Source: Paraglaciecola sp. (lineage in GTDB: Bacteria > Pseudomonadota > Gammaproteobacteria > Enterobacterales > Alteromonadaceae). Taken from it: 64,000 nt of DNA. Positions 40,334 through 63,072 of the stretch are shown here, one piece after another. Made by a program: the position numbers and the translations under genes. The stretch spans positions 46,369 through 110,368 of the forward strand of contig JAACSL010000009.1 in assembly GCA_009993955.1 (NCBI GenBank). Direction: 5' to 3'. The notes under the pieces were generated by a model. The model worked only from the letters and a program-made list of their open reading frames with translations, made no database searches and had not been told where the DNA came from. The first letter of the stretch is position 1; every line of letters begins with the position of its first letter.

Positions 40334-40375
40334 ATGAAAAACACACTGCGCGTTGTCCATCACCATAGAGCTTAA
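40334..40375 (+). CDS. hisL: his operon leader peptide (MKNTLRVVHHHRA)
   Basis: 13-codon ORF with AGGA 9 nt upstream and three consecutive His codons (CAT CAC CAT). It lies directly upstream of an attenuator and hisG. Confidence 0.7.
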   Translation: MKNTLRVVHHHRA

Positions 40376-40468
40376 CCTTTCAGGTTTAGGCTGGAAGGTT
40401 AGTTAAATCCTTCCAGTGGCGCAGAAAATTTTCTCAACCCTCGGAAGGTAACTTTCGGGGGTTTTTTG
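40374..40468 (+). promoter_or_regulatory. his attenuator: overlapping alternative hairpins ending in an intrinsic terminator
   Basis: AACCTTTCAG (40374-83) can pair with CTGGAAGGTT (40391-400). CTGGAAGG can pair with CCTTCCAG (40409-16). CCTTCC can pair with GGAAGG (40443-48). The terminator is CCCTCGGAA-ggtaac-TTTCGGGGG plus T6 (40438-40467). Confidence 0.7.
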
Positions 40469-47565: not shown

Positions 47566-48339
47566 ATGTTAGCAAGACGTATTATCCCCTGTTTAGATGT
47601 TAAAGATGGCAAAGTGGTCAAGGGTGTGCAGTTTCGCAACCATGAAATCATCGGTGACATTGTACCTTTAGCCAAGCGTTATGCCGAAGAAGGCGCGGAT
47701 GAACTGGTGTTTTATGATATCACCGCATCCAGTGATCAACGGGTGGTGGATAAAAGCTGGGTGAGCCGTATTGCACAAGTGATTGATATTCCGTTTTGTG
47801 TGGCAGGCGGCATTAAAACCGTTGAACAAGCGGGGCACATTCTGGAAATGGGCGCAGACAAAATTTCAGTCAACTCCCCTGCCCTCGCTGATCCTGCGTT
47901 GATCACACGTTTACACGATACCTATGGACAACAGTGTGTGGTGGTGGGTATCGACAGTTATTTTAATGCCCAAACAGGTGTCTATCAGGTACATCAATAT
48001 ACCGGCGATGAAAGTCGCACTCAAATAACCCACTGGCAAACCGCCGACTGGGTCAACGAAGTTCAGCAACGAGGTGCCGGTGAAATTGTGCTTAATTGCA
48101 TGAATCAAGATGGCGTGCGTCAAGGTTATGACCTGAGCCAACTGGCGGCTATTCGCCAAACATGTAAAGTGCCGTTAATTGCCTCAGGTGGTGCTGGCGC
48201 CATGCAACATTTTAAAGATGTGTTTATGCAAGCTGACGTAGACGGCGCGTTAGCCGCCTCTGTGTTTCACAAAGGCATTATTCCCATTGCTGAGTTAAAA
48301 GCCTTTTTACGTGCCGAGCACATAGCCATAAGAGATTAA
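47566..48339 (+). CDS. hisF: Imidazole glycerol phosphate synthase, cyclase subunit
   Basis: 257 aa. [40 protein letters not shown]. Confidence 0.95.
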
Positions 48340-48340
48340 G

Positions 48341-48961
48341 ATGTTAATTAATAAAGATAATGTAAGTGAATTGGCTTGGCACAAAATGGACGAGCTGCTG
48401 CCTTGTATTGTGCAACATGCCGTAAGTGGCAAAGTGCTGATGCAAGGTTTTATGAATGCAGAAGCGGTATTAAAAACCCTTGATAGTGGCAAAGTCACCT
48501 TTTTTAGTCGTTCTAAACAACGTTTATGGACCAAGGGCGAAACCTCAAATCATACACTGACACTTGTCGAAATCAGCGCAGATTGCGACGCCGATTCAAT
48601 TTTAGTCTTAGCTCATCCCAATGGCCCCACCTGCCATACGGGGTCTGAAACCTGCTGGTCGGCCAGCCAATCAGCTGATTTAAGCTTTATTGGTGAACTA
48701 GAGCAAATCATTGCATCGCGCAAAGGGGCAGATCCAGATTCGAGTTATACCGCCAGTTTGTATGCTAAAGGCATCAAACGTATCGCGCAAAAAGTCGGTG
48801 AAGAAGGCGTAGAAACCGCCCTAGCGGCCACGGTTAAAGACTTAAATGAGCTTAAAAACGAGAGTGCTGATCTGCTCTATCACTTAATTGTCTTGCTGCA
48901 AGCCAGTGATCTTACCCTCAGTGATGTAGTAGGGGTGTTACGCGCTAGACATAAAAAATAA
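48341..48961 (+). CDS. hisI: Bifunctional phosphoribosyl-AMP cyclohydrolase / phosphoribosyl-ATP pyrophosphatase
   Basis: 206 aa. LLPCIVQH...[15 protein letters not shown], and the C-terminal HisE region [10 protein letters not shown]...ESADLLYHL. Confidence 0.93.
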
Positions 48962-50145: not shown

Positions 50146-50463
50146 TTAAGCGCTCAATAGCACACTCAGCAGTAGCGTGGCTAACGCACCCACCACTGCC
50201 CCACCCGCAAAGATCACAAAATGCAGTCGCGGGTTGGGCACAGGTTGTAGCGTTTTTTCTTCAGGTTTGGGCACAGCAAACAACACCTCGCGTTTCACTT
50301 CAAAGGCCACACACAAGGCCATGATGGTCTCCAGCGAGGCGCTACCTTGGTTTTCAACACGCTGAATGGTGCGCAAGTTGACATCACACACCTCTGACAG
50401 CTGCTGTTGCGTCCACTGCTTCGAAAGTCTCAGTGACTTAACGATGTCGCCGCGTAACTCCAT
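50146..50463 (-). CDS. XRE-family helix-turn-helix protein with C-terminal transmembrane anchor
   Basis: IVKSLRLSKQWTQQQLSEVCDVNLRTIQRVENQ is an HTH_3 motif. The C-terminal FVIFAGGAVVGALATLLLSVLL is a TM helix. Confidence 0.75.
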   Translation of the reverse strand: MELRGDIVKSLRLSKQWTQQQLSEVCDVNLRTIQRVENQGSASLETIMALCVAFEVKREVLFAVPKPEEKTLQPVPNPRLHFVIFAGGAVVGALATLLLSVLLSA

Positions 50464-50469
50464 GGCTGT

Positions 50470-50904
50470 TTATGCCCAAAATTTCATAATAAGGCTCACA
50501 GAGCTGTAGCCCACCACGGCGCCTAAAAGCGCTGCGAGAATGATCACCCAAATGGATGTTTTCTTAGCGTTGGGCAGGTAAGCTTTACTCTCTTTTGCCA
50601 CTAATACATCGTTGGCATACAAACTTACCTGCACTTCCCCCGTGGCAAACTTAGCCAAATACACCTCTGCACGATACTGGATCTCACCGACAGTGAAATA
50701 GTGTTGACTGAGTCGACCAAATAACTTGTGTTTAATCGATACAGGATGATTGTTAACGTACATGGTTTCTTTGCCTGACCACGCTGAGCCGTGCATAGAA
50801 ATGTCATTGCCTTGATGATCGAAGTAAAACCAGTAGCCATTTTTCATGCTGACCTGACTCATAGCGGCATCTCTGTTAATGTTGATAGTTTGATTGTCTT
50901 TCAT
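50470..50904 (-). CDS. Hypothetical C-terminally anchored membrane protein
   Basis: 144 aa from the ATG preceded by AAGGAG. It has a beta-rich soluble part and a C-terminal TM (IWVIILAALLGAVVGYSSVSLI). It ends 6 nt before the XRE gene. Confidence 0.55.
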   Translation of the reverse strand: MKDNQTININRDAAMSQVSMKNGYWFYFDHQGNDISMHGSAWSGKETMYVNNHPVSIKHKLFGRLSQHYFTVGEIQYRAEVYLAKFATGEVQVSLYANDVLVAKESKAYLPNAKKTSIWVIILAALLGAVVGYSSVSLIMKFWA

Positions 50905-51030
50905 TTTATGCTCCTTGTTAATAGCCAGCACATTGAAGGTTATTTACCCTTGGGTGAAAACGGCAGATTTACGACAGTCAGGGCAATGGGCGTACGACAG
51001 TCGTGCTGTCGTACACCCCAAAAAGTAAAT

Positions 51031-51059
51031 TTGACAAACCAATCCCAGTCCCTTAACTT
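51031..51059 (+). promoter_or_regulatory. Candidate sigma70 promoter of the AKR-dioxygenase-yeiH unit
   Basis: TTGACA (51031-36), 17-bp spacer, TAACTT (51054-59). The GH31 promoter has the identical architecture. Confidence 0.5.
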
Positions 51060-51077
51060 ATGTCTTATATAAGACAT
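51060..51077. promoter_or_regulatory. Operator-like perfect palindrome ATGTCTTATATAAGACAT
   Basis: 18-bp perfect palindrome beginning immediately after the -10-like hexamer (core TGTCTT from 1 nt after it), 26 nt before the AKR ATG. The same core occurs at 56999-57028 and 62138-62153. Confidence 0.65.
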
Positions 51078-51102: not shown

Positions 51103-52068
51103 ATGCCTGATCAGCAAAAGCAAATGCCCAAGGTGGGTTTTGGCCTATGGAAAGTAGCTAAAGAGACTTGTGCAGACGCCGTTTATAACGCGATTAAAGT
51201 GGGTTATCGCCATCTTGACAGTGCCAGCGATTATGGCAACGAGGTGGAAGTGGGCCAAGGAATTCAGCGCGCGCTTGCCGATAAATTATGCCGCCGCGAA
51301 GACCTATGGATCACCTCAAAATTGTGGAATACCTACCACCGCAAAGAGCATGTTGAACCGGCAATACGCAAAAGTTTGCACGATTTACAACTTGATTATC
51401 TAGATCTCTATCTGATTCATTTTCCCATTGCTCAGCCCTATGTCGATTTTAACGACCGTTACCCGCCGGAGTGGATTTTTGATCCCAAGGCTGCTGAGCC
51501 AAAAATGGAAATCGCACCAGTGCCCTTGTACGAAACGTGGCAGGGCATGGAAGCTCTGGTTGAAGCCGGTCTGACCCATAAAATTGGCGTGTGCAACTAC
51601 AATACTGGCCTACTCAATGATTTGATGGCCTACGCAAAGATTAAACCTGCGGTATTACAAGTTGAGTCACACCCTTATCTTACCCAGCAACGTTTGATGC
51701 AATTGGCTCGCGATTACGCCATCGAGGTAACCGCATTCTCCCCGCTGGGTGCTTTGTCTTATTTAGAGTTAGACATGGCAGGGGCACAAGAATCCGTTTT
51801 AGAGCAAGCAGTAGTCAAACAAGCCGCTAAACGCCTAAACAAAACGCCCGCACAAGTGGTTTTACGCTGGGGTGTGCAACGAGGTAACGCTATTGTGCCC
51901 AAGACATCTCGCCCTGAACGCCTTGCAGAAAATTTGGCGATCTTTGATTTTTCCCTCTCAGAGCAAGAAATGGCGGCCATTGATGCATTAAACTGCAACC
52001 GACGTTTTAACGATCCTGGTCAGTTCTGTGCTGCAGCATTTCACAAATTTTATCCTATTTACGATTGA
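51103..52068 (+). CDS. Aldo/keto reductase (xylose-reductase-like subgroup)
   Basis: 321 aa. GFGLWK, the catalytic tetrad context LDSASDYGNE / SKLWN / LIHFP, and LDYLDLYLIHFP. Confidence 0.85.
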   Translation: MPDQQKQMPKVGFGLWKVAKETCADAVYNAIKVGYRHLDSASDYGNEVEVGQGIQRALADKLCRREDLWITSKLWNTYHRKEHVEPAIRKSLHDLQLDYLDLYLIHFPIAQPYVDFNDRYPPEWIFDPKAAEPKMEIAPVPLYETWQGMEALVEAGLTHKIGVCNYNTGLLNDLMAYAKIKPAVLQVESHPYLTQQRLMQLARDYAIEVTAFSPLGALSYLELDMAGAQESVLEQAVVKQAAKRLNKTPAQVVLRWGVQRGNAIVPKTSRPERLAENLAIFDFSLSEQEMAAIDALNCNRRFNDPGQFCAAAFHKFYPIYD

Positions 52069-52076
52069 GGTAAGCC

Positions 52077-53066
52077 ATGGCCACATCAGCAATTCAATAT
52101 GTTAGCGTCGCCAATCAATTGCACTGCAACAACAGCGTTTTTCCCAGTGTGATTGTCAACAATGAAAGTGTGAAAACACTGGCCGAGTGCCGGGATTGGA
52201 TTGCTGAACATCGTGAGGAATTGGAAAGTACCCTACGTGAATCTGGCGCGATTTTATTTCGCGGTTTTCCCATGAATTCTGCAGAAACCTTTGATGAATT
52301 CTCCAGTGCCTTTGGTTACCCCAATTTTACTTATCAAGAATCCTTGTCTAACGCAGTAAGGATCAACTTCACTAAGCGGGTTTTTACCGCCAATGAAGCG
52401 CCCAAAGAAGTCGAGATCTTCTTACATCACGAAATGGCACAAACGCCGATTTCTCCAACTAAACTGTTTTTCTTTTGTAAAACGGCGGCAGAACAAGGGG
52501 GAGCAACACCTTTGTGCCGTTCTGATATGTTGTACGCAGAGTTTGCCCGTCAACAACCAGAGTGGGCAGAACAGTTTGCAAACAAAGGGCTTAAATACAC
52601 CACACAGATGCCCGCTGAAAATGATATCAATTCTGGCCAAGGACGCAGTTGGAAAAGCACTCTAAACGTTGAAAATACGGCTCAAGCAGAAACTAAATTA
52701 ACGGAACTGGGTTACACGTGGACTTGGTTAGACGATGGCAGTTTGCGCGCCACTACGCCAATTTTACCCGCTGTGATTGATATTGGTCAGGGTCAAAAAG
52801 TGTTCTACAACCAACTGATTGCGGCATTCATGGGTTGGAAGGGAGTCAGAGAGAATCCAGCTAAAGCTATCACCTTTGGTGACGGCAGCCATATTCCCAT
52901 CGGCGCTTTGGAACTGATGGTTAAACTGTCTGAAGATTATACCTTTGATGTACCGTGGCAAGACGGTGATATGGCCTTGGTCGATAACTACATTGCCATG
53001 CATGGTCGTCGTCCTTACTCGGGTGAACGTAAACGTCAAGTCTTAGTTGCCTTAGCCATTGATTGA
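52077..53066 (+). CDS. TauD/TfdA-family Fe(II)/2-oxoglutarate dioxygenase (clavaminate-synthase-like subgroup)
   Basis: 329 aa. LHHEMAQ (H-x-E metal ligands), distal IAMHGRRPY (His plus Arg), and GGATPLC. Confidence 0.75.
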   Translation: MATSAIQYVSVANQLHCNNSVFPSVIVNNESVKTLAECRDWIAEHREELESTLRESGAILFRGFPMNSAETFDEFSSAFGYPNFTYQESLSNAVRINFTKRVFTANEAPKEVEIFLHHEMAQTPISPTKLFFFCKTAAEQGGATPLCRSDMLYAEFARQQPEWAEQFANKGLKYTTQMPAENDINSGQGRSWKSTLNVENTAQAETKLTELGYTWTWLDDGSLRATTPILPAVIDIGQGQKVFYNQLIAAFMGWKGVRENPAKAITFGDGSHIPIGALELMVKLSEDYTFDVPWQDGDMALVDNYIAMHGRRPYSGERKRQVLVALAID

Positions 53067-53104: not shown

Positions 53105-54103
53105 ATGGACAAGGTAAAAACCTTCATACCCGGTATTGTGGTGGCCACCATAACGGGTTTTGCTGCGCTGTTTTTGTCCGAGCATTATGGCGCGCCTGCC
53201 ATGTTATTTGCCCTACTCTTAGGCATTGCCCTTTCGTTTCTATACGAAGAAACCAAATGCAAAACGGGCATCGAATTTACCGCTTGTCATATTCTGCGTA
53301 TTGGCGTTGCCCTGTTGGGTTTGCGCATCGCCTTTGGTGATTTAGCCGCATTGGGCTGGAAAACCGCGCTGGTCCTAATCATCGCCATCGCTACAACCAT
53401 AACCTTTGGCATGTTGGTCGCCAAAGCCTTTGGTTTGAGTAAACGCTTTGGTGTATTGAGCGGAGGTGCTGTGGGTATTTGTGGTGCATCGGCAGCCATG
53501 GCCATTGCCGCTGTATTACCCGAGGGGCCAGAGAAAGAACGCGATACGATTTTGACGGTGATTGGTGTCACGGCTTTATCCACCATTGCCATGGTGTTAT
53601 ACCCCATCATTGCCGGTTTACTCGAGCTTGATCCCACTAGCACCAGCATTTTTCTAGGCGGCACCATTCATGATGTGGCGCAAGTGGTGGGAGCTGGCTA
53701 TTCAGTATCTGAACAAACCGGTGATTTAGCGACCCTGACAAAATTGGTTCGGGTGGCCTATTTGATGCCTGTAGTTTTGTGCATTTTATTTGTGATAAAA
53801 CTGAATTTAAGTAAGCAAAACCAAGCGGGTGAATTGCAAGCTAAGTCGCCTGGTTTACCCGGTTTTTTAATCGCATTTATTGTGTTGATGACTCTAAACA
53901 GTCTGGTCGAACTGCCCAGTCTTGTGACCACCAGTGCCAACGAGTTGTCACGTTTTGCTCTTGTGGTTGCCATTACCGCCATTGGCATGAAATCCAACCT
54001 GCGTCGCCTGTTAACTGTCGGCATTCGCCCCATCTTATTGCTGATCCTCGAAACCCTGTGGATTGCTGGCTTAATTCTGCTTAGCCTACCCTACTTGGCA
54101 TAA
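53105..54103 (+). CDS. yeiH: YeiH family (UPF0324; putative sulfate exporter family) membrane protein
   Basis: 332 aa, ~10 TM. ILRIGVALLGLRI, GGAVGICGASAA, GGTIHDVAQVVGAG. Confidence 0.8.
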   Translation: MDKVKTFIPGIVVATITGFAALFLSEHYGAPAMLFALLLGIALSFLYEETKCKTGIEFTACHILRIGVALLGLRIAFGDLAALGWKTALVLIIAIATTITFGMLVAKAFGLSKRFGVLSGGAVGICGASAAMAIAAVLPEGPEKERDTILTVIGVTALSTIAMVLYPIIAGLLELDPTSTSIFLGGTIHDVAQVVGAGYSVSEQTGDLATLTKLVRVAYLMPVVLCILFVIKLNLSKQNQAGELQAKSPGLPGFLIAFIVLMTLNSLVELPSLVTTSANELSRFALVVAITAIGMKSNLRRLLTVGIRPILLLILETLWIAGLILLSLPYLA

Positions 54104-54481: not shown

Positions 54482-54506
54482 GAAAAAAGGCGCCTTGCGG
54501 CGCCCC
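54482..54506 (-). terminator. Rho-independent terminator of the TonB-dependent receptor gene
   Basis: The minus strand reads GGGGCGCC-GCAA-GGCGCC-TTTTTTCT, about 20 nt after the stop. Confidence 0.65.
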
Positions 54507-54526: not shown

Positions 54527-56884
54527 TTAGAACTTCGCTCTTAACTGCACACCAAAATACCGATCTGCGTCACGTGGGATCTGATAACGGAAACCGTCAC
54601 CAGAATAGGTGGTAATAAAACTCTCATCCGTTAAATTTTTACCGATGAGGGTAATCCGGTAGTCATCGTCGTTAAACGAAAACGCTAAACTGGCATTTAA
54701 AATCGCATAGTCGGGTAATAAATCCACGGCACTTGGCGTTCCGCCTGGTGCACCCGCATAGATTTCGTCAGTGTAGACATAAGAGCTGTTTAAGATCACA
54801 TCCATATCAGCCAGTTCCCAGGTGTATTCGCCTACCACTGAGTATTTTAAGTCTGGCGAGAAGGGAATATCAGCACCTGAGCGACCATCACAGGTAGTGG
54901 AACCCGCTGGACATAAAAACTCATCAATTTCAGCGTCCACGCTGGCAAAACCGCCGGAAAGCGTGAAGTGCTCAGACACTTGCCACAAAAAGTCTGCTTC
55001 GATACCTTGGGTAATCACCGAACCCGCGTTGGTTAAACGGGTGATGGTCACACCATCGAGCAGTTCAGAGTTGTTGGCTTGGAAGCCATCGATGTTGGTG
55101 CGGAACAAGGCTGCGTTGAAAATTAAATCGCGGCTTGCATATTTATAGCCCAATTCATAGGCATCCGACGATTCTTTGCCGATGGGCAATGTATCGTTGG
55201 TATTCATGTTGTAAAACACGTTAAACGCTGGACCTTTGTACCCTTGCGAATACGTTGCATACACCATGCTGCCTTTGCTTAAATCGTATTGTGCGCCTAA
55301 CTTAATGGCAAAATTGGTTTCATCGGTTTTGCCCGAATAATTGGTGGCAGAATCACGCACACCGATACCACCACGACCATATTCATCATTGTTACGACGA
55401 TTATGATTGAAGCTGACTTCATCATCGGTATAACGCATACCAAACAATAAACGTAAGTCTTCGCTTAGGTGATATTTACCGTCACCAAACAAGGCCCAGT
55501 TATCAAACTGGGTGTTCATAAATGCCGTGGCACTGACGATGTCATTGCGGTTACACGAGATTAAATTGTCAGCAATAAACTGGTCGGCTTGTTCGGCAGT
55601 TGGCGAGGTTTGTCCCAGCTTAGTGCTCAAATAATTTTGAATAGTGGCGGTTAAATTACCTGAGCAACTGGCGTCACGGGTAAAGTTACGCTCAGACTGC
55701 TGTTGCCACCAAAAAAAGCCCACTTGATATTCAAGGTCGTTGCCAATCGGTGAGGCGAGACGAAATTCTTGTGAAGTTTGTTTCCAATTCTGAATACCGG
55801 TGTCATGTAATAAAAACGTGCCGGTGGGGATGGGCTGCGTGCCGCCAATCGAAGTAAAGTCCCCTTCGCGCAATTCAGTGTTATCCCAACTGCGGAATGC
55901 CGTGATAGACGTAAACTCATGGCTGCCCATGGGCTTATCAATTTGCATCGAGAATCCGGTGGTTTCATCTAAGGTGCGAGTTTCAAAATCGTGATCGATC
56001 TTGCGTTGATCTAAGTCAAAATCGCCCGCGCCTGAGCTATTGGGCAACGCTTCTGAATTGGGGTGACGGTTACTTGGGGTGAGTTCCAAATCGGCACAGC
56101 AATTGTCGTTTGATTTCATGTTTTCGAAAATGAATAACATGTCAGTGTCACCGGCTGCTTCCAATTTCAACATGGCACGCAAACCTTCTTTGTCGTAACC
56201 ATTGGTCATTTCATTGGTGTATACATTATTAATGTATCCATCATATTGCGACTTCAATACGGTCAGACTACCTTGAGCGTTGTCACTCAACTCCCCTGAA
56301 ACACTGGTTTTTAAGCGGTATTCGTTGCCTTGGTAAAGGCTAATTTCGGCATTGCCTTCAAAGCCTGTGGTGGGTTTTTTAGTGGTAATGTTCACCACAC
56401 CGGCTGAGGCATTTTTGCCAAACAACGTGCCTTGTGGGCCACGTAATACCTCGATACGCTCTAAGTCATACAAATCAATAAACGCTTGCCCTGAGCGACC
56501 TAATACAACTCCGTCAACCACGGTAGAGACACTGGGCTCGGCGGCGACACTGAAAGAAATCGTGCCTATGCCCCGGATAGTGATGGCTGAGTTACGGTTT
56601 GTATTACCTTTACGGAAACTGACAGAAGGGACTAATCCTTGCAAACCTTCGATGTTGGCTGAAAACGCTGCGTTAATTTGATCTTCACGTAATACCGACA
56701 CCGCCACCGGTACTTCATTCAGGTTTTCCACGCGCTTTTGCGCCGTCACCGTGATTTTTTCCAGTAAGCCTTGATCTTCTTTCGGCTCTTCTTGAGCCAT
56801 CGCTGTCGAGCTCAGAGCTACATAGCTAGACATAGCCAATGCAGCGGTGATGCCGCTAGTTAGTTTACTTAAAGTGAATCGCAT
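54527..56884 (-). CDS. TonB-dependent outer-membrane receptor
   Basis: 785 aa. Signal peptide, plug region (ITVTAQKRVENLNEVPVAVSV, RGIGT), and C-terminal ...QLRAKF with a terminal Phe. Confidence 0.9.
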   Translation of the reverse strand: MRFTLSKLTSGITAALAMSSYVALSSTAMAQEEPKEDQGLLEKITVTAQKRVENLNEVPVAVSVLREDQINAAFSANIEGLQGLVPSVSFRKGNTNRNSAITIRGIGTISFSVAAEPSVSTVVDGVVLGRSGQAFIDLYDLERIEVLRGPQGTLFGKNASAGVVNITTKKPTTGFEGNAEISLYQGNEYRLKTSVSGELSDNAQGSLTVLKSQYDGYINNVYTNEMTNGYDKEGLRAMLKLEAAGDTDMLFIFENMKSNDNCCADLELTPSNRHPNSEALPNSSGAGDFDLDQRKIDHDFETRTLDETTGFSMQIDKPMGSHEFTSITAFRSWDNTELREGDFTSIGGTQPIPTGTFLLHDTGIQNWKQTSQEFRLASPIGNDLEYQVGFFWWQQQSERNFTRDASCSGNLTATIQNYLSTKLGQTSPTAEQADQFIADNLISCNRNDIVSATAFMNTQFDNWALFGDGKYHLSEDLRLLFGMRYTDDEVSFNHNRRNNDEYGRGGIGVRDSATNYSGKTDETNFAIKLGAQYDLSKGSMVYATYSQGYKGPAFNVFYNMNTNDTLPIGKESSDAYELGYKYASRDLIFNAALFRTNIDGFQANNSELLDGVTITRLTNAGSVITQGIEADFLWQVSEHFTLSGGFASVDAEIDEFLCPAGSTTCDGRSGADIPFSPDLKYSVVGEYTWELADMDVILNSSYVYTDEIYAGAPGGTPSAVDLLPDYAILNASLAFSFNDDDYRITLIGKNLTDESFITTYSGDGFRYQIPRDADRYFGVQLRAKF

Positions 56885-56998
56885 AGTGTGCTCCAGACAT
56901 TGTCTTTTTTGTAGTGTCTATAATCCCGTTATCTCGCAACAACCTATCCGGCGCCGATGGTGTGCATGCAGCCGTGGTTGAGATAGCTTAGTCGCTGG

Positions 56999-57028
56999 TA
57001 TCTTTTGTCTTATATAAGACAAAAGATA
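56999..57028. promoter_or_regulatory. 30-bp perfect palindrome TATCTTTTGTCTTATATAAGACAAAAGATA (operator-like) between dctP and the TonB-dependent receptor gene
   Basis: Verified base by base. It has the same TGTCTTATATAAGACA core as the other two sites. TATCTT occupies the -10-like position on both strands. Confidence 0.7.
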
Positions 57029-57103
57029 AACTAACTAAGTTGTAAAACAATTGCAAATAGTTTGTTAATTTAATTGCATCACACGGAAACGCGTAAAGAC
57101 TGA

Positions 57104-58141
57104 CTACATTGCAGGGCTGCACTGAGCTACAGCATCATCCAGAAGGGTAAGCCACTGGGGGCCAAAACGCTTAGCAAACCAAGGACGCATTTTTTGACTG
57201 GCATCAACAAAAGCTTTTTTCTCTTCGACTGAGAGCCGATAGATAGTGCCACCGGCGGCTTCAAACAAACGATAAGAGTTGGCTTCTTGGTCTTTAACAT
57301 ATTGATTGGCTGCCTGCGCCTGCAGCGCGAAACCTTGCAAAACTAATTGTTGAATATCAGCCGGTAAACCTTGCCACACGGGTTCAGAAAACCACCAAAG
57401 AGTGGCCATGTATGAATGCCCATCGAGGATCACATACTTCAAATGCTCTTCTAGTTTCGCACCAATAATATCTTGAATCCCGTTTTTACTGCCTTCCACT
57501 ACACCAGTTGCCAACGCCGTGTATAGTTCAGCCCACGAGATGGGGGTGGGATTAGCCCCTAGCTGGCGAACCAACTCTTGTTGAATATCAGCCTCTGTGG
57601 TGCGAATTTTTAAACCTTTCAGATCATCAGGGCTATGCACCGCTTTATCGGTGGTAGCAAAATTTCGCCAGCCCCCCGTATTTGATACACCAAGCAAACG
57701 CAAATTCAGCCCCTGTTGCAGCACTTGTCTGCGCATTTCATCCATTAATGGTCCCCAGAGAACACATTCCGCTTGGCTATCGTCGGTAAAAACATAAGGT
57801 AAATCAATAACCTGCGCGGGGCTGAAAAAGTTACCCGTGCCTCCTGCGGTACTGGGGAAAATCTCTAATACACCCTTTTGCAGATTACCAATGCACTCGG
57901 CCACACTGCCACAAAATTGCCCCGATGGATAAAGTTGCACCTGCACCCTACCCTGACTTTGTTGTTCGACATACTGCTTAAAAACCAGCAGACCAATGTA
58001 GTCTTCGTCTTGAGTGGAAGCCTGAATCGAGGCTTTGATGGTAAATTCGGCATGTTTAACCGTGCTATTGAACAGGCCAATGGCACAGACCATCACTACC
58101 GTGGCGTAGATCAACAGTAAGGCCTTGCGTTTGGTTGTCAT
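57104..58141 (-). CDS. TRAP transporter substrate-binding protein (DctP family)
   Basis: 345 aa from the ATG at 58141 (the longer ORF starts at TTG 58156). N-terminal anchor/signal, then the DctP-like pattern; it lies directly after dctM. Confidence 0.8.
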   Translation of the reverse strand: MTTKRKALLLIYATVVMVCAIGLFNSTVKHAEFTIKASIQASTQDEDYIGLLVFKQYVEQQSQGRVQVQLYPSGQFCGSVAECIGNLQKGVLEIFPSTAGGTGNFFSPAQVIDLPYVFTDDSQAECVLWGPLMDEMRRQVLQQGLNLRLLGVSNTGGWRNFATTDKAVHSPDDLKGLKIRTTEADIQQELVRQLGANPTPISWAELYTALATGVVEGSKNGIQDIIGAKLEEHLKYVILDGHSYMATLWWFSEPVWQGLPADIQQLVLQGFALQAQAANQYVKDQEANSYRLFEAAGGTIYRLSVEEKKAFVDASQKMRPWFAKRFGPQWLTLLDDAVAQCSPAM

Positions 58142-58142
58142 C

Positions 58143-59429
58143 TTAGGCAAACCCAAACCAGCGAGGTAAGGTCATGGTTAGCACCGGGAAATAGGTGATG
58201 AGCAAGATAACCAAGGCTTCAACGGCTAAAAACGGCAGCATTTCTATGGCAATATTTTCGGTTTTTTCCCCTGACACCGAGGCAGCCACAAATAACACTA
58301 AACCCATGGGTGGTGTAGCCAGCCCAACGGTTAAATTCACACACATAATCACAGCAAAGTGCAAGGGGTCGACCCCCAAGGTAATAAAGATCGGCGCCAA
58401 TACTGGCCCTAAAATCAAAATCGCCGGGCCAGCGTCGAGAAACATGCCAATAGCAAACAAAAATAAGTTGATAATCAACAACAGCAACAAGACATTGTCG
58501 GTGATGCCAACTATCTGCTGGGCCATTAAATCGGCCATGCCCGACACCGTGATGATCCAAGCAAAGGTCACGGCCGAACCGACCAATAATAAAATGGTGC
58601 CAGACTGAATGGCTGAGTTAACCAAGATTACAGGCAAGGAACTTGACTTCAGGGTTTTGGTAAAGAACAGGGTAATGATCAAAGCATAACCCGCTGCCAC
58701 TGCTGCAGCTTCAGTGGGTGTGAACACACCAAGCACAATGCCACCGAGCAAGATTACCGGTGTTAACAGCGGCAGAAAGGAGCCTTTAAGGGCTTGACCA
58801 CGCTCTGTCCACGTTGCTTTAAGGTTAGCCACCGGATAATTGCGTTTTTTCGCAATTCGGCTGGTCACCAGCATCAAACCCACACAAATCAATAAACCCG
58901 GTACTATCCCTGCTAAAAACATACCGGCCACCGATACGTTCATAATAAAGGCATATAAAATCATGATCCCAGAGGGCGGAATAATCGGCCCGATCACCGA
59001 TGAAGCCGCGGTCACCGCTGCGGCAAAACGCCGACTGTAGCCGTTTTGTTCCATGGCCGGGATCAGCATTTTGCCTAAGGCTGAGGTATCGGCTACCGCA
59101 GAGCCTGATAAACCTGCAAATAAGACTGAGGACAAAATATTCACTTGCGCCAAACCACCCCGGTAATGACCGATCAGGGTTTGACTAAAACGCACGATGG
59201 ACTGAGTGATGCCACCTTGATTCATGAGTTCACCCGCGAGGATGAAAAACGGTACCGCCATCAAGGGAAATGAATTCATCCCGGAATACAAACGGGTCAA
59301 TAAGGCAGAGAAAAATACTTCGTTGCCATCAATAAGCAAACTGACACCAGGGCCAATCAGTAAAGCAAAAACCACCGGAGTACCCGCCGTGAGTAACAGT
59401 AAAAACACCCAAAAATAACTTAACGACAT
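58143..59429 (-). CDS. TRAP transporter large permease (DctM family)
   Basis: 428 aa, ~12 TM. LMAVPFFILAGELMNQGGI. Confidence 0.88.
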   Translation of the reverse strand: MSLSYFWVFLLLLTAGTPVVFALLIGPGVSLLIDGNEVFFSALLTRLYSGMNSFPLMAVPFFILAGELMNQGGITQSIVRFSQTLIGHYRGGLAQVNILSSVLFAGLSGSAVADTSALGKMLIPAMEQNGYSRRFAAAVTAASSVIGPIIPPSGIMILYAFIMNVSVAGMFLAGIVPGLLICVGLMLVTSRIAKKRNYPVANLKATWTERGQALKGSFLPLLTPVILLGGIVLGVFTPTEAAAVAAGYALIITLFFTKTLKSSSLPVILVNSAIQSGTILLLVGSAVTFAWIITVSGMADLMAQQIVGITDNVLLLLLIINLFLFAIGMFLDAGPAILILGPVLAPIFITLGVDPLHFAVIMCVNLTVGLATPPMGLVLFVAASVSGEKTENIAIEMLPFLAVEALVILLITYFPVLTMTLPRWFGFA

Positions 59430-59430
59430 G

Positions 59431-60075
59431 TCAGTATTGCTCGCGAATGAGGGGCTGTGACCAGGTGCTCAGTTGCATGAGCAGCTTTTCGATGCCCACC
59501 AGCCAAATTGAGCCAAAGACAAAGGGCGTGCACAAGTAAAAATACGCGAGTTTCACTGGCAGTGAAGACGCATATATTTGCCAACCGCCTTGCACAAATT
59601 CAAGGCTTTGCTTAAAAAACAGGCCACTCACTACCAACAACAATAGGGTGATGAGCAAGTTCGATAATTTATATAGGCTAGGTGGTAGCGCGTCAGCAAA
59701 CATATCAATGGAGACATTAAGATTTTCACGGTAAGCCCAAGGTGCAACCAAACAGGCTATCCACACCATAAAAAACTTGGCCAATTCTTCTGTCCAGCCA
59801 AGAGAATTGTTGAGGCCATACCTGAATATCACTTGAGCAATGATCATCACTAACATCAGTGCGAGGAGCACACCAGCCAGATATTTGGCCAGTAAACTGA
59901 CCGCATAATTGAATTTCGCCAGTCCGTTAAGTAGTGGGGCTAACACGATGCAAAGCCCAGAGTAATGTCGTGCATCAGCGCCAATACTGTGTTTATCAAC
60001 ACTAACACTCACTCCAATAGTGACTGATTTGCACGGTGTTACCCAGTTGTTCGGTGTGTTCGACATCTGGGCCAA
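59431..60075 (-). CDS. TRAP transporter small permease (DctQ family); start uncertain
   Basis: 4 TM. FRYGLNNSLGWTEELAKFFMVWIACL. The ATG at 60075 would overlap the GH31 3' end by 74 nt; an alternative GTG lies at about 59946. Confidence 0.75.
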   Translation of the reverse strand: MAQMSNTPNNWVTPCKSVTIGVSVSVDKHSIGADARHYSGLCIVLAPLLNGLAKFNYAVSLLAKYLAGVLLALMLVMIIAQVIFRYGLNNSLGWTEELAKFFMVWIACLVAPWAYRENLNVSIDMFADALPPSLYKLSNLLITLLLLVVSGLFFKQSLEFVQGGWQIYASSLPVKLAYFYLCTPFVFGSIWLVGIEKLLMQLSTWSQPLIREQY

Positions 60076-62074
60076 TGGCTAAGTCGTGACCTTGTTTCAC
60101 AAAAACGGCCATCTCCTGCCAAGCTAGCTTAAGCTTATGGATACGACCACCGCTAAACACTTGTTTGTCAGCAAAAGCTAACCAGTCGCCCTCTGGTAGG
60201 TAAAACTCAACCTCGCCTCCGGGTTGTACGCAGGGTACCACCAAGAGGCTATCACCAAACATAAACTGCAATTCAAAGCCCCAGCTCAAACGTTCCAATG
60301 GGAAAGCCAAGGCCATGGCTCGCATCACAGGCAAACCCGTTTCACTGGCTTGTTGCATGGTGCGATAAATATAAGGCAGTAGTTTGTAGCGCAGTTTTAA
60401 AGCAATATTCACTGCGGCTTCCGCTTCAGGTCCATAACTCCACGGTTCACGTTGACCGATGCCATGCAAACGCATGTGGGCAGAAAAGACCGCGGTTTGT
60501 GACCAGCGTACAAATAATTCTGGATCCCGCATGTCCTTGTAAAAGCCACCCACATCAGTGGCGAAATAAGGAGAACCTGACATGCCCCAAGACAAAGCGC
60601 CACGTATGCTGCCCACTAAACCACCCCAATCGGCTTGAGGATCACCCCCCCATTGGCTGGGATAACGTTGTGAGCCAATCCACGCAGAGCGACTGAATAA
60701 AAACGGCCCAGATTGACAGTAGGCCTCGGCGGCTTGATAGACACAACGGTTGTATAACAAACTATAAATATTGTGCAGGCGCAAACCAGAGTCACCGTTG
60801 TAGGCAAGCATGTTGTCATCTTCTACCTGCTCACCAAAGTCGGCTTTAATCATATCAATACCCAAGTCAAACAAGGGTTTGTGTGATTCTAGCCAAAACT
60901 GAAACGCATCGGGGTGAGTGAAGTCGACGATGCCCGATTCAGGCAGCGGGGTGAGCACTTCGGCAAAGGCACTCATGTCCCATTGGTAACGATAGGCTTC
61001 GCCAGTACGCTTGTCTTTGAGTAACCAGCCCTTGCGCGCCATCTCTGCAAACAAAGGGTTGGCCACTGAAACCAAGGGATACTCCCAAATACAAATTTTA
61101 AAGTTCAGGGCTTTTAGCTGATTAAGCACCGCGGCAGGGTCGGTATAACGCTTTTTGTCCCACTCAAAAGCAAAACGGGTATCGGTGTCCTGCCATGCTC
61201 GGCCGTCTAAGGTGATCACATCACAAGGCATGTGGTGCTCACGTACCGCTTTGGCCGTAGCCAGTAACTCTGGCACATCGCGATAATAGGCTTTGGAGAG
61301 AATCACCCCCAAACTCCAAAATGGTGGTACAGGGGCTTTACCGGTTAATTGAGTGTAGCCTTCGATAATGGCCTGACCATCTTCACCGCGCAAAATAAAC
61401 ACATCCATGGCGGGATCTTCCACGACCAGACTGTAAGCGCGGTTTGACCACGGCGCATACCCAACCGCATGGGTAACCGGTGCGGGTGTGTGCACAAATG
61501 TTCCCCAGCCTTTGGGACTCCAACAAAATGGCGTATTTTTGTAGGATATTTCTGCGTTGACACCCAAGGCATCATGATTGTAGGAGCGCAGCAGTTGCCC
61601 ACGTTTATTCAAGCCCGCCCATTTTTCCCCGAGACCAAAGACCGGCTCTTCTGGCGCAAGATCAAAACTCAGCAACCACCCTTCTGGTACTTTTGCCAAA
61701 GGTGGTAAACGATACTGGCGAACAAAGTGCCCATCGTTTGGTGTGCGTTGGATAAGTGTGTCGCCACAATGTAAAGTAAAGGCAAATGGACGTTTTTGAC
61801 AGCGTAACCGCCACTCGCCACTATGAATAAGCACAAACTCATCTTGATCGTCTATGCGACAAGGCAATTGTGCAGGTAGGCACTGTAACATGCCGTAATC
61901 ATGAAGATTTTGTTTGCCTATTTGCAGCCGAACAGCAAAATCAAAAAACATGAGACTCAAGCTACCTTCAGTCGTCTCAATACTTACCTCAAGACCACTT
62001 GTAGCCAGGCTGGCTTTGCCAATTAGTTCAAGTTGTTTAACCTTATTCCAATTGGGCGAATTGCAGTCGAGCAT
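60002..62074 (-). CDS. Glycoside hydrolase family 31 (YicI-like alpha-glycosidase)
   Basis: 690 aa. The nucleophile region IKADFGE, WGGD, DVGGF, and long collinear similarity to E. coli YicI as recalled. There is no signal peptide. Confidence 0.85.
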   Translation of the reverse strand: MLDCNSPNWNKVKQLELIGKASLATSGLEVSIETTEGSLSLMFFDFAVRLQIGKQNLHDYGMLQCLPAQLPCRIDDQDEFVLIHSGEWRLRCQKRPFAFTLHCGDTLIQRTPNDGHFVRQYRLPPLAKVPEGWLLSFDLAPEEPVFGLGEKWAGLNKRGQLLRSYNHDALGVNAEISYKNTPFCWSPKGWGTFVHTPAPVTHAVGYAPWSNRAYSLVVEDPAMDVFILRGEDGQAIIEGYTQLTGKAPVPPFWSLGVILSKAYYRDVPELLATAKAVREHHMPCDVITLDGRAWQDTDTRFAFEWDKKRYTDPAAVLNQLKALNFKICIWEYPLVSVANPLFAEMARKGWLLKDKRTGEAYRYQWDMSAFAEVLTPLPESGIVDFTHPDAFQFWLESHKPLFDLGIDMIKADFGEQVEDDNMLAYNGDSGLRLHNIYSLLYNRCVYQAAEAYCQSGPFLFSRSAWIGSQRYPSQWGGDPQADWGGLVGSIRGALSWGMSGSPYFATDVGGFYKDMRDPELFVRWSQTAVFSAHMRLHGIGQREPWSYGPEAEAAVNIALKLRYKLLPYIYRTMQQASETGLPVMRAMALAFPLERLSWGFELQFMFGDSLLVVPCVQPGGEVEFYLPEGDWLAFADKQVFSGGRIHKLKLAWQEMAVFVKQGHDLAIGPDVEHTEQLGNTVQISHYWSEC

Positions 62075-62137: not shown

Positions 62138-62153
62138 ATTCTTATATAAGACA
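62138..62153. promoter_or_regulatory. Third copy of the operator motif (ATTCTTATATAAGACA; 14/16 match)
   Basis: On the minus strand it reads TGTCTTATATAAGAAT, 1 nt after the TAACTT -10 hexamer. It lies 64 nt upstream of the GH31 ATG and 170 nt upstream of the gntR ATG. Confidence 0.6.
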
Positions 62154-62154
62154 C

Positions 62155-62183
62155 AAGTTATAACAGTGTTAATTTTTTGTCAA
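62155..62183 (-). promoter_or_regulatory. Candidate sigma70 promoter of the GH31-dctQMP operon
   Basis: The minus strand reads TTGACA (62183-78), 17-bp spacer, TAACTT (62160-55), identical to the AKR promoter. Confidence 0.5.
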
Positions 62184-62322
62184 TGCACTTAAAGACCACG
62201 GGATTTTTGCTGGAAACGATAGATCGTTAGCCATAACAAAAAAAGAGTTATTGTATAAGACTGCAGGAATAACTATGCTGCAAGGCTTATTTTTACAGGC
62301 AGGCAATGTAGCAGTTTGAACT

Positions 62323-63072
62323 ATGAAAGAAATTCGCTTCGATAATAAGCTCAGTAGCACTGGACCGGTATTCAAACCACTTTACAAACAAGTGGAAGAA
62401 CACATTAAACAACTCATTGTCGAGCAGCGCTGGAAACCGGGTGATATGTTACCAAACGAATTTCAGTTGGCGGCAGAGCTGAATGTAAGCCAAGGCACCA
62501 TGCGTAAAGCCCTAAATAGCCTGACCGATACAAAAGTATTAACCCGAAAACAAGGGGTGGGCACCTTCGTTTCTGAGCACACCGCGCAAAATGGATTATT
62601 TCGATTTTTCCCCATCATCGCTGATGGCAACAATCCTGAACTACCCAAAGCGGAACTGCTGTCCATTGATTCACAAGTACCCGATAAACTGGTTGCCAAC
62701 GCCCTGGAGCTGAGTAACAAAGACAAGGTGATTGTGATGCGCCGCAGACGCATATTAAATGATGAATACTGCATTGCCGAGACAATATACCTGCCCTATG
62801 TGTATTTCAAAAACATCCTTGAGATCACGGACATTCCTCACACCTTGTATCACTTTTATCAAACCCACTTTAACCTGACTGTGCACAGCACCCAAGATGC
62901 GATAAAAGCTGATTTGGCCGATGAGTTAGATGCGCAGCTGATGAACATTGCCGTAGGCGAGCCGATTTTATCCGTGCAACGCACCGTTCATTCTTTGAAT
63001 GGAAAGGCTATGGAGTTTCGCATTAGCCGTTGTAGAAGTGACAAATATCACTATTTGGTGAAGCTCAATTAA
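62323..63072 (+). CDS. GntR family transcriptional regulator, HutC subfamily (UTRA effector domain)
   Basis: 249 aa. PLYKQVEEHIKQLI...W.PGDMLPNEFQLAAELNVSQGTMRKALNSL...VLTRKQGVGTFV, and a C-terminal UTRA-length domain. Confidence 0.88.
   Translation: MKEIRFDNKLSSTGPVFKPLYKQVEEHIKQLIVEQRWKPGDMLPNEFQLAAELNVSQGTMRKALNSLTDTKVLTRKQGVGTFVSEHTAQNGLFRFFPIIADGNNPELPKAELLSIDSQVPDKLVANALELSNKDKVIVMRRRRILNDEYCIAETIYLPYVYFKNILEITDIPHTLYHFYQTHFNLTVHSTQDAIKADLADELDAQLMNIAVGEPILSVQRTVHSLNGKAMEFRISRCRSDKYHYLVKLN

Follow-up and report, generated by a model that had tools for sequence, protein, structure and literature searches.

A HutC-type regulator and its palindromic sites as the probable control layer of a sulfoquinovose cluster in Paraglaciecola and related Alteromonadaceae

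Sulfoquinovose (SQ) and its glycerol glycoside represent a very large marine flux of carbon and sulfur, and Alteromonadaceae are reported to be their principal consumers (PMC12780224). According to the same 2025 study, Alteromonas macleodii ATCC 27126 grows on SQ and sulfoquinovosyl glycerol (SQGro) with the gene cluster MASE_17990-18035, whose proteins are increased 2-223-fold on these substrates (107-fold for the receptor). The cluster encodes the dioxygenase AmSqoD, which is 34% identical to MaSqoD, and AmSqgH, a GH31 sulfoquinovosidase from a new clade close to GH31_3 in which R302, T377, K412 and F513 are the SQGro-binding residues, as well as a sulfate transporter, a sulfite dehydrogenase and a TonB receptor (PMC12780224). 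The word "regulator" is absent from the main text of PMC12780224, and no regulator or operator is described there. Here we describe a set of palindromic sites, together with the neighbouring GntR/HutC-type gene whose product very probably binds them, in a cluster of this type from Paraglaciecola sp. (contig JAACSL010000009.1; the whole analysed stretch of 64,000 nucleotides is called the window below).

The motif of these sites resembles that of SdhR, a HutC-subfamily GntR regulator predicted in silico, whose site TCTTATGTCTTATATAAGACATAAGA is quoted in PMC4494728 as a palindrome with additional symmetry. In usual HutC operators GT and AC are 4 nt apart, and the SdhR geometry is listed as an exception (PMC4494728). 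The same authors also mention that many GntR-family sites have weaker additional boxes, placed 7-12 nt away from their centre. Among regulators of SQ catabolism, CsqR (YihW) of E. coli is a local repressor which is released by SQ and SQGro and has several sites within its cluster (PMC8006165). In the searchable literature CsqR is the only characterised SQ regulator, and no experimental work on SdhR was found. The SdhR prediction is reportedly due to Suvorova, Ravcheev and Gelfand (2012, J Bacteriol 194:3234).

The 16-bp core TGTCTTATATAAGACA was searched in the 64 kb with up to 3 mismatches, and exactly 3 copies were found against 0.19 expected; none of 100 shuffled sequences (0/100) attains this number. 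Two copies are exact (51061-51076 and 57006-57021) and the third one matches at 14/16 positions (62138-62153). All of them fall in intergenic regions of the cluster, namely before the aldo-keto reductase (AKR) operon, the TonB receptor gene and the GH31-TRAP operon. The first copy lies within the perfect 18-bp palindrome ATGTCTTATATAAGACAT (51060-51077, O-A) and the second within the perfect 30-bp palindrome TATCTTTTGTCTTATATAAGACAAAAGATA (56999-57028, O-T), while the third, ATTCTTATATAAGACA (O-G), is perfectly palindromic in its central 12 bp. These three sites had been pointed out in an earlier sequence-only reading of this DNA, and each of them is confirmed by inspection of the sequence; its by-eye statement that no further full core exists in the window agrees with the mismatch search. 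The same reading reported a half-site TATAAGAC upstream of gntR at 62254-62261, which is indeed present. It is, however, more than a half-site: the search with the 12-bp core TCTTATATAAGA, in which up to 2 mismatches were allowed, brings in 62249-62260 (TATTGTATAAGA), a part of the degenerate site O-R (GTTATTGTATAAGACT, 62247-62262), 61 bp ahead of the gntR ATG. As judged from the related loci described below, O-R is the remnant of a full autoregulatory site.

The core has the geometry GT-N10-AC (GTCTTATATAAGAC), plus extra outer boxes. The original proposal that this GT...AC inverted repeat fits a GntR/HutC regulator thus has to be specified: the spacing differs from the usual GT-N4-AC, and the fit is to the SdhR-type HutC motif, the one published counterpart of the 12-bp core found by full-text search of the literature (PMC4494728). 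O-T shows a four-box structure, TCTTt-TG-TCTTA-TA-TAAGA-CA-aAAGA, and its positions 57001-57026 (TCTTtTGTCTTATATAAGACAaAAGA) match the 26-bp SdhR motif at 24/26 positions. At the AKR and GH31 sites outer CTTA boxes are found on the promoter side (CTTA of TAACTTA). The junction pairs of the 30-bp palindrome are t/a in the window lineage, c/g in others (L019, L020 and L022 were compared) and a/t in SdhR sites, the changes being symmetric on both arms.

The gene at 62323-63072 on the forward strand encodes a protein with a GntR winged helix-turn-helix domain (PF00392, 74.3 bits, residues 20-83) and a UTRA domain (PF07702, 98.4 bits, residues 108-243); with both domains present, it is assigned to the HutC subfamily of GntR factors. 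Among PDB entries it comes closest to 2ra5 (a putative transcriptional regulator that is uncharacterised), YvoA/NagR and DasR, and its recognition helix reads VSQGTMRKA. The palindrome is very probably the DNA-binding site of this protein, which we propose to be a repressor. The gene had already been named as the candidate, and this choice gains support from the two domains and from the fact that the motif tracks the type of the DNA-binding domain, as follows.

A regulator-based genome search gave 35 loci, which belong to Paraglaciecola, Glaciecola, Brumicola, Colwellia, Pseudocolwellia, Aestuariibacter and Planctobacterium (58-88% identity) and to 3 distant Alphaproteobacteria. In the 32 orthologous Alteromonadaceae loci (611 kb, up to 2 mismatches) 69 copies of the motif are found, as compared to ~0.3 expected by chance. 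A wider motif search had been suggested as a way to tell a regulon from a generic repeat. Carried out on the window and these 611 kb, it favours a regulon, with 66 of the 69 copies located within 330 bp upstream of genes of four classes: AKR, receptor, GH31 and gntR. Of the remaining three, two are receptor-side sites beyond the 330-bp rule and one precedes a GlpD-like gene. The 12-bp core hardly varies (no more than 1 mismatch in the 80 or so sites used) and its flanks diverge, with regulator identity going from 88% down to 58%. Orthologues of O-A are present at the AKR promoters of 9 loci, plus L124 (an Alteromonas locus) and L043/L101, and those of O-G amount to 32 distinct sites. A fourth class, TATCTTGTATAAGAyA (11 distinct sequences), is located 56 bp ahead of the gntR start and is followed by the conserved AGTTAATATTA; the window site O-R appears to be its decayed version. 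The motif arrangement is kept in Glaciecola-type loci, where the AKR operon is placed after the regulator, and in Colwellia- and Alteromonas-type loci, where an SSS symporter stands for the TRAP transporter. Phylogenetic footprinting, another check that had been put forward, thus finds the motif at the same promoters in the 32 loci, as would suit an operator of a GntR/HutC regulator.

The possibility that the motif is a generic dispersed repeat (REP- or MITE-like) is negligible. Such a repeat could well be an AT-rich perfect palindrome in several copies, but the three copies in 64 kb are all at cluster promoters, no flanking repeat structure is seen, orthologous positions are conserved across genera, and none is found elsewhere in the 611 kb of related loci except at one further promoter. 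This promoter belongs to an Aestuariibacter metagenome-assembled genome (L035:15002-15017), where the extra copy lies 45 bp ahead of a gene for a GlpD-like FAD-dependent dehydrogenase; control of this gene by the operator would fit the use of glycerol released from SQGro. The closest relative of the window locus, L007 (NZ_JBGQOM010000002.1, a 648-kb contig with proteins 74-95% identical), is titled 'Flavobacterium sp. W21_SRS_FM6', so that its organism label looks wrong or the assembly looks mixed.

Loci with a different regulator serve as a negative control. The validated locus of Marinomonas ushuaiensis and the SqoD-clade loci of Alginatibacterium and Reinekea encode a GntR+UTRA protein which is only 28-30% identical to the window regulator and has the helix VA[IV]GTLRK. 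No TGTCTTATATAAGACA-like copy is present in the promoter regions of these loci. Therefore, the motif follows the type of DNA-binding domain and not the pathway. Paraglaciecola chathamensis S18K6 (L012) points the same way: the regulator and its own upstream site are kept there, with no GH31, TRAP, receptor or AKR genes within 10 kb. The regulator of L012 is flanked by ABC exporters and a PhoD-like phosphatase, and a 72%-identical dioxygenase of P. chathamensis is encoded elsewhere (P0036).

A scan of metagenomes with an SdhR-specific 24-mer gave 78 contigs with a median GC content of 0.60. A HutC-type gene 28-42% identical to the window regulator by blast is present in 46/78 of them, usually directly beside the site, and most of these genes (28-32%) are SdhR-type. 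Two SdhR-type loci were scanned with Pfam; the regulator is situated between mdh and sdhC/sdhA in both, and acnB is nearby in one. A third group of regulators (37-40% identical) is found beside galactarate/altronate-type dehydratases in high-GC bacteria (L039:9917-9932, L072:1716-1739, L096:1321-1344), which means that a single type of operator is used in three or more unrelated regulons. The alphaproteobacterial loci L039-L041 were also considered as SQ clusters and rejected, as Pfam gives sugar-acid dehydratases and glycosyltransferases there. Two of the 78 contigs are Alteromonadaceae AKR-dioxygenase operons (L043 and L101). In the alignment of 11 sequences from the three regulon types (A2), VSQGT[VM]RKA, R.QG.GT.V and PLY.Q are invariant; identity is 40-57% in the DNA-binding domain and 22-34% in UTRA. 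Because the recognition helix and the wing are invariant and UTRA has diverged, the window regulator is best described as a paralogue of SdhR which shares its DNA specificity, and not as its orthologue.

This co-variation also bears on the idea that another factor (the LysR-type regulator encoded from 63162 onward, or a global regulator) binds the palindrome and that the GntR protein is a bystander. A LysR gene does stand beside gntR in the window and in L001-L006, and extra conserved blocks (AACAAA, TTAACA) near the receptor and GH31 promoters hint at another factor. On the other hand, the LysR gene is non-syntenic in most orthologous loci, the motif does not have the LysR T-N11-A form and has been published as a HutC-family motif (PMC4494728). 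Since it co-varies with the HutC type of DNA-binding domain in three regulons unrelated to each other, and is absent beside a different HutC regulator, such a bystander role is highly improbable.

The promoters at the operators were assigned from sequence and conservation. In the AKR-sqoD-exporter promoter (+) TTGACA at 51031-51036 is the putative -35 and TAACTT at 51054-51059 the putative -10 hexamer, the CTTA of which also fits the outer TCTTA box of the SdhR-type motif. The sqgH promoter (-) has the same two hexamers at 62178-62183 and 62155-62160. The earlier claim that an identical TTGACA-17-TAACTT unit precedes the core by 1 nt at both places (51031-51059, + and 62183-62155, -) is borne out by the coordinates. 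In AKR promoters TTGACA located 16-17 nt ahead of a TAnnnT that abuts the core is kept in L027, L029, L031, L035, L037 and L124. The GH31 arrangement TTGACA-17-TAACTT-N-core is conserved across Paraglaciecola, Glaciecola and Brumicola, with the -10 hexamer retained in L007-L030, L032 and L038. The spacer of this promoter, aaTTTAACACTACTA (62161-62177), is unusually conserved.

At the receptor gene the sequence-only reading had noticed TATCTT (57028-57023, -) 1 nt ahead of the core, i.e. in the position taken by TAACTT elsewhere. The position is correct, but the promoter that is conserved across genera is a different one, TTGCAA-17-TAGTTT (57056-57028, -), with the -35 hexamer at 57051-57056 and the -10 hexamer at 57028-57033. 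In the alignment of 16 upstream regions (A1) an invariant TTGCA is followed after 17 nt by TAnnTT, with T1, A2 and T6 invariant in 16/16 sequences, and the operator comes 2-14 nt further on. TATCTT itself reads CGTCTT or CATCTT in relatives, and only the TCTT-y directly before the core is invariant. A 7-nt indel between TAnnTT and the TCTT box leaves TTGCAw-17-TAnnTT intact in all sequences and breaks the alternative TTTACw-18-TATCTT in the window lineage. TATCTT was thus rejected as the receptor -10 hexamer; its pattern of conservation is that of an outer box of the operator. Colwellia and Pseudocolwellia have the core between -35 and -10, with a second half-site 26 bp further downstream.

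At all three window promoters the operators begin 1-6 nt past the -10 hexamer and, from this geometry, should cover the transcription starts. The predicted starts of the AKR operon (~51066, +), of the receptor gene (~57021, -) and of sqgH-dctQMP (~62148, -) would lie within the operators. The suggestion that the operator overlaps the start is therefore well in line with the comparative promoter geometry. TAACTT shares only 3/6 positions with TATAAT (T1, A2 and T6), so a perfect -35 is combined with a weak -10. The generic sigma-70 promoter scan of the window did not call the proposed promoters because the scanner wants 4-of-6 matches at -10. Weak -10 hexamers are typical of promoters needing help and might mean that the regulator activates these genes or acts dually. 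This is very unlikely: in each promoter class the operators cover the -10 hexamer and the start, are placed downstream of them or fall between -35 and -10, which is a repressor geometry; no site is centred near -41 or -61; and the perfect TTGACA speaks against activator dependence. Moreover, the characterised HutC members, NagR/YvoA, DasR, HutC, TreR and PhnF, act as repressors, and a metabolite of the respective pathway releases them.

The 30-bp palindrome might alternatively act mainly as an RNA hairpin which terminates, attenuates or stabilises read-through transcripts of sqgH-dctQMP. The region folds as a long hairpin (-40.8 kcal/mol, z = -5.1) reaching past the palindrome, the terminator scan finds no other terminator between dctP and the receptor gene, and symmetric junction changes (t/a, c/g) keep the long palindrome in six loci. 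However, the stem is AT-rich, no U-tract follows 56999 (-) and the palindrome is not reported by the terminator scan. Most orthologues lack the extended arms, whereas the 16-bp core and the TCTT box on the promoter side do not vary. The same core is present at two other promoters, where a 3' hairpin is impossible, and the conserved receptor promoter is situated just upstream of the palindrome. A primary role as RNA hairpin is hence very unlikely, and the palindrome is best regarded as an operator. In the long receptor leader the Rfam search gave no hit to a riboswitch or another known RNA.

Some further elements of these promoter regions deserve mention. AGACA/TGTCT elements near the ribosome-binding site of the receptor gene, also listed previously, do exist (AGACAtTGTCT and TGTCT at 56895-56919), but they are kept only in the two closest relatives, L007 and L008, and were rejected as half-sites. 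AGACAtTGTCT (56895-56905) stands directly ahead of the ribosome-binding site, whose context GGAGaACAC-ATG is kept in all relatives compared. In the receptor promoter (57040-57066, -) invariant AACAAA and T.AC surround the -35 hexamer, and TTAACA-N14-TGTTAA is seen in some relatives. It is possible that these blocks and the conserved GH31 spacer may be the site of a second regulator. A 23-bp palindrome unrelated to the core, GTACGACAG-TCGTG-CTGTCGTAC, occupies 50992-51014, 17 bp upstream of the AKR -35 hexamer; a third copy of TACGACAGTC is found at 50970-50979, 13 bp before it. This palindrome is absent from the AKR promoters of relatives. Its divergent neighbours encode a 144-aa protein without Pfam match (50470-50904, -) and an XRE-type HTH protein (50146-50463, -), and it may be the operator of this pair.

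The window genes were annotated with Pfam and NCBIfam. The forward-strand operon starts with an AKR (51103-52068), a candidate 6-dehydroglucose reductase that is xylose-reductase-like and shows no orthology to SquF/SmoB. It is followed by a SqoD-type Fe/2-oxoglutarate sulfoquinovose dioxygenase of the TauD family (52077-53066), which scores 228 bits against MaSqoD (9YUT) and keeps HHEMAQ and the residues aligned to MaSqoD Trp253 and Tyr85; its 2-His-1-carboxylate triad H117/E119/H309 aligns with H121/E123/H313 of AmSqoD. The third gene encodes a putative sulfate/sulfite exporter of the PF03601/YeiH family (53105-54103). The reverse strand carries the TonB-dependent receptor (54527-56884), an orthologue of the A. 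macleodii-type MASE_18030, and the operon of the SqgH-type GH31 sulfoquinovosidase (60002-62074) with the TRAP small permease DctQ (59431-60012), large permease DctM (58143-59429, 63% identical to the M. ushuaiensis DctM) and solute-binding subunit DctP (57104-58141, 42% identical to the M. ushuaiensis SqoK). R300/T375/K410/F511 of the GH31 protein correspond to the AmSqgH binding residues. A YihQ-type (GH31_13) sulfoquinovosidase was considered and rejected: R301/W304 (E. coli numbering) fall within a 6-residue deletion, Y508 aligns with Phe and identity is 26%. This sulfonate-binding YihQ signature is absent because the window GH31 belongs to the separate SqgH clade.

The Alteromonas locus L124, which was reached via a dioxygenase homologue, agrees with the publication in its layout of ten genes and in the functional residues, down to their numbering. 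The identity of the window proteins to their L124 counterparts is 69% for SqoD, 62% for SqgH, 71% for AKR, 63% for the exporter, 57% for the receptor and 58% for the regulator. L124 contains 3 copies of the motif, at the receptor, GH31 (a perfect 16-mer) and AKR (TTGACA-17-TAACTT-a-core) promoters. By gene content and functional residues the window locus is assigned to the SQ/SQGro clusters of the A. macleodii type (sulfo-SDO + SqgH). The canonical sulfo-ASDO pathway of Marinomonas/Marinobacterium (PMC10507154) was rejected, since the window AKR is not SquF-like, the dioxygenase shares only 32% identity with SqoD of M. ushuaiensis and there is no orthology between the regulators; the fit to that pathway is partial because the A. 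macleodii cluster is the correct reference.

The inner-membrane transporter is swapped by lineage, with TRAP DctPQM in Paraglaciecola and Glaciecola and the SSS symporter in Alteromonas, Colwellia and Aestuariibacter (L031, L033-L037, L124), and the receptor, GH31 and the operators stay in place across this swap. An intrinsic terminator, GGGGCGCC-GCAA-GGCGCCTT with a T-run (54487-54506, -), is situated just past the receptor gene, in the gap where this gene and the exporter gene converge, and probably ends both transcription units. Further upstream, the window contains a histidine operon leader (Rfam RF00514, 52.6 bits, 40351-40466) ahead of histidine biosynthesis genes; open reading frames follow from 43875, and HisF (47566-48339) and HisIE (48341-48961) were identified by Pfam. 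No tRNA genes are present within the 64-kb window.

What was computed here is the motif with its statistics, how its positions are conserved, how it co-varies with the type of DNA-binding domain, and which pathway the genes belong to; induction by SQ and SQGro is published for A. macleodii ATCC 27126 only, a member of a sister genus. Taken with these data, it is quite likely that a HutC repressor occupies the start sites of three transcription units, and weakly its own promoter, and is released by an SQ-derived ligand. Without inducer, a dimer of the regulator would bind TGTCTTATATAAGACA, and additional subunits may sit on the TCTTA-like boxes at its sides. Counted from the predicted start, the site would reach from about -6 to +16, and its occupation would block RNA polymerase at the AKR-sqoD-exporter, TonB receptor and sqgH-dctQMP units. 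Binding of SQ or SQGro to the UTRA domain would release the repressor and lead to joint induction of uptake (TonB receptor, TRAP), deglycosylation (SqgH), desulfonation (SqoD), reduction (AKR) and sulfite/sulfate export. The weak fourth site may provide residual autoregulation.

Several points weigh against this scheme. That the regulator binds these sites, in which direction it acts and which effector it responds to is what we infer. The -10 hexamers are weak, and the promoters were assigned from consensus and conservation only. The window autoregulatory site is degenerate, and Alteromonas (L124) has none. The motif counts cover the window and related loci only. The footprint loci were retrieved via the regulator gene, which makes the co-occurrence of regulator and motif partly a matter of construction; this bias is mitigated by the negative control and by the fact that the search which led to L124, L043 and L101 started from the dioxygenase or from the motif itself.

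A more speculative and rather doubtful extension is that a single recognition module (VSQGT[VM]RKA with TCTTA-TG-TCTTA-TA-TAAGA-CA-TAAGA) was kept nearly unchanged and its effector domain diverged to serve at least three unrelated regulons, those of the tricarboxylic acid (TCA) cycle (SdhR), of sugar-acid dehydratases and of SQ. In the SQ regulon the outer box would have merged with the -10 hexamer (TAACTTA-TGTC), so that polymerase and repressor compete for the same bases, and sites with two outer boxes, as at the receptor, would be bound by a higher-order complex giving the tightest repression.

The regulatory logic itself is ordinary and no new mechanism is involved; the in-silico prediction of the motif class dates from 2012 and the characterisation of the pathway from 2025. 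The novelty appears to lie in linking this regulator and its operator set to the SQ regulon of Alteromonadaceae, and in the reuse of the SdhR operator and recognition helix. The operator set would supply the control layer for the enzymes described in PMC12780224: one HutC repressor with three or four operators, which would switch together outer-membrane uptake, inner-membrane transport, deglycosylation, desulfonation and sulfite export. The motif can be used as a sequence handle for further members of the regulon, such as the GlpD-like gene in one genome, and the regulator-operator pair offers a ready design for an SQ biosensor. The system would also be a clear example of an operator and a DNA-binding module reused across regulons with different effectors.

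Comparison with known systems places the window regulator as follows. The A. macleodii cluster has an orthologous gene set and the same functional residues, and the same three operators are found in L124. Unlike that cluster, the window has the TRAP transporter and not the SSS symporter, has no TauE and SorAB nearby, and its AKR operon is convergent with the receptor gene.

SdhR shares with the window regulator the operator, as TCTTATGTCTTATATAAGACATAAGA holds the 16-bp core exactly (window sites 16/16 twice and 14/16 once), the four-box additional symmetry, the helix VSQGT[VM]RKA, the wing R[RK]QG.GTFV and a site adjoining the regulator's own gene. In contrast, the proteins are only 28-32% identical overall (UTRA 22-26%, DNA-binding domain 40-44%). 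SdhR-type sites belong to the mdh <-> gntR-sdhCDAB (+acnB) divergon (TCA cycle) of high-GC bacteria, whereas no TCA-cycle genes stand beside the window regulator, for which a different effector is expected.

The HutC regulator of the Marinomonas/Marinobacterium sulfo-ASDO clusters (PMC10507154) belongs to the same subfamily and to the same kind of cluster with SqoD, TRAP and AKR, but its recognition helix differs and its identity is 28-30%; the two regulators were recruited independently. CsqR is a functional analogue, being a local repressor of an SQ catabolic cluster; it differs as a DeoR-family protein which has the sulfo-EMP pathway under its control and binds an unrelated operator, cooperatively along DNA. 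A typical HutC-family helix has the sequence SR-x. With the classical HutC repressors (NagR/YvoA, DasR, HutC, TreR and PhnF) the window regulator has in common the domain architecture and, as proposed here, a promoter-overlapping palindromic operator and release by a metabolite, and it is distinguished from them by a helix that reads SQG.

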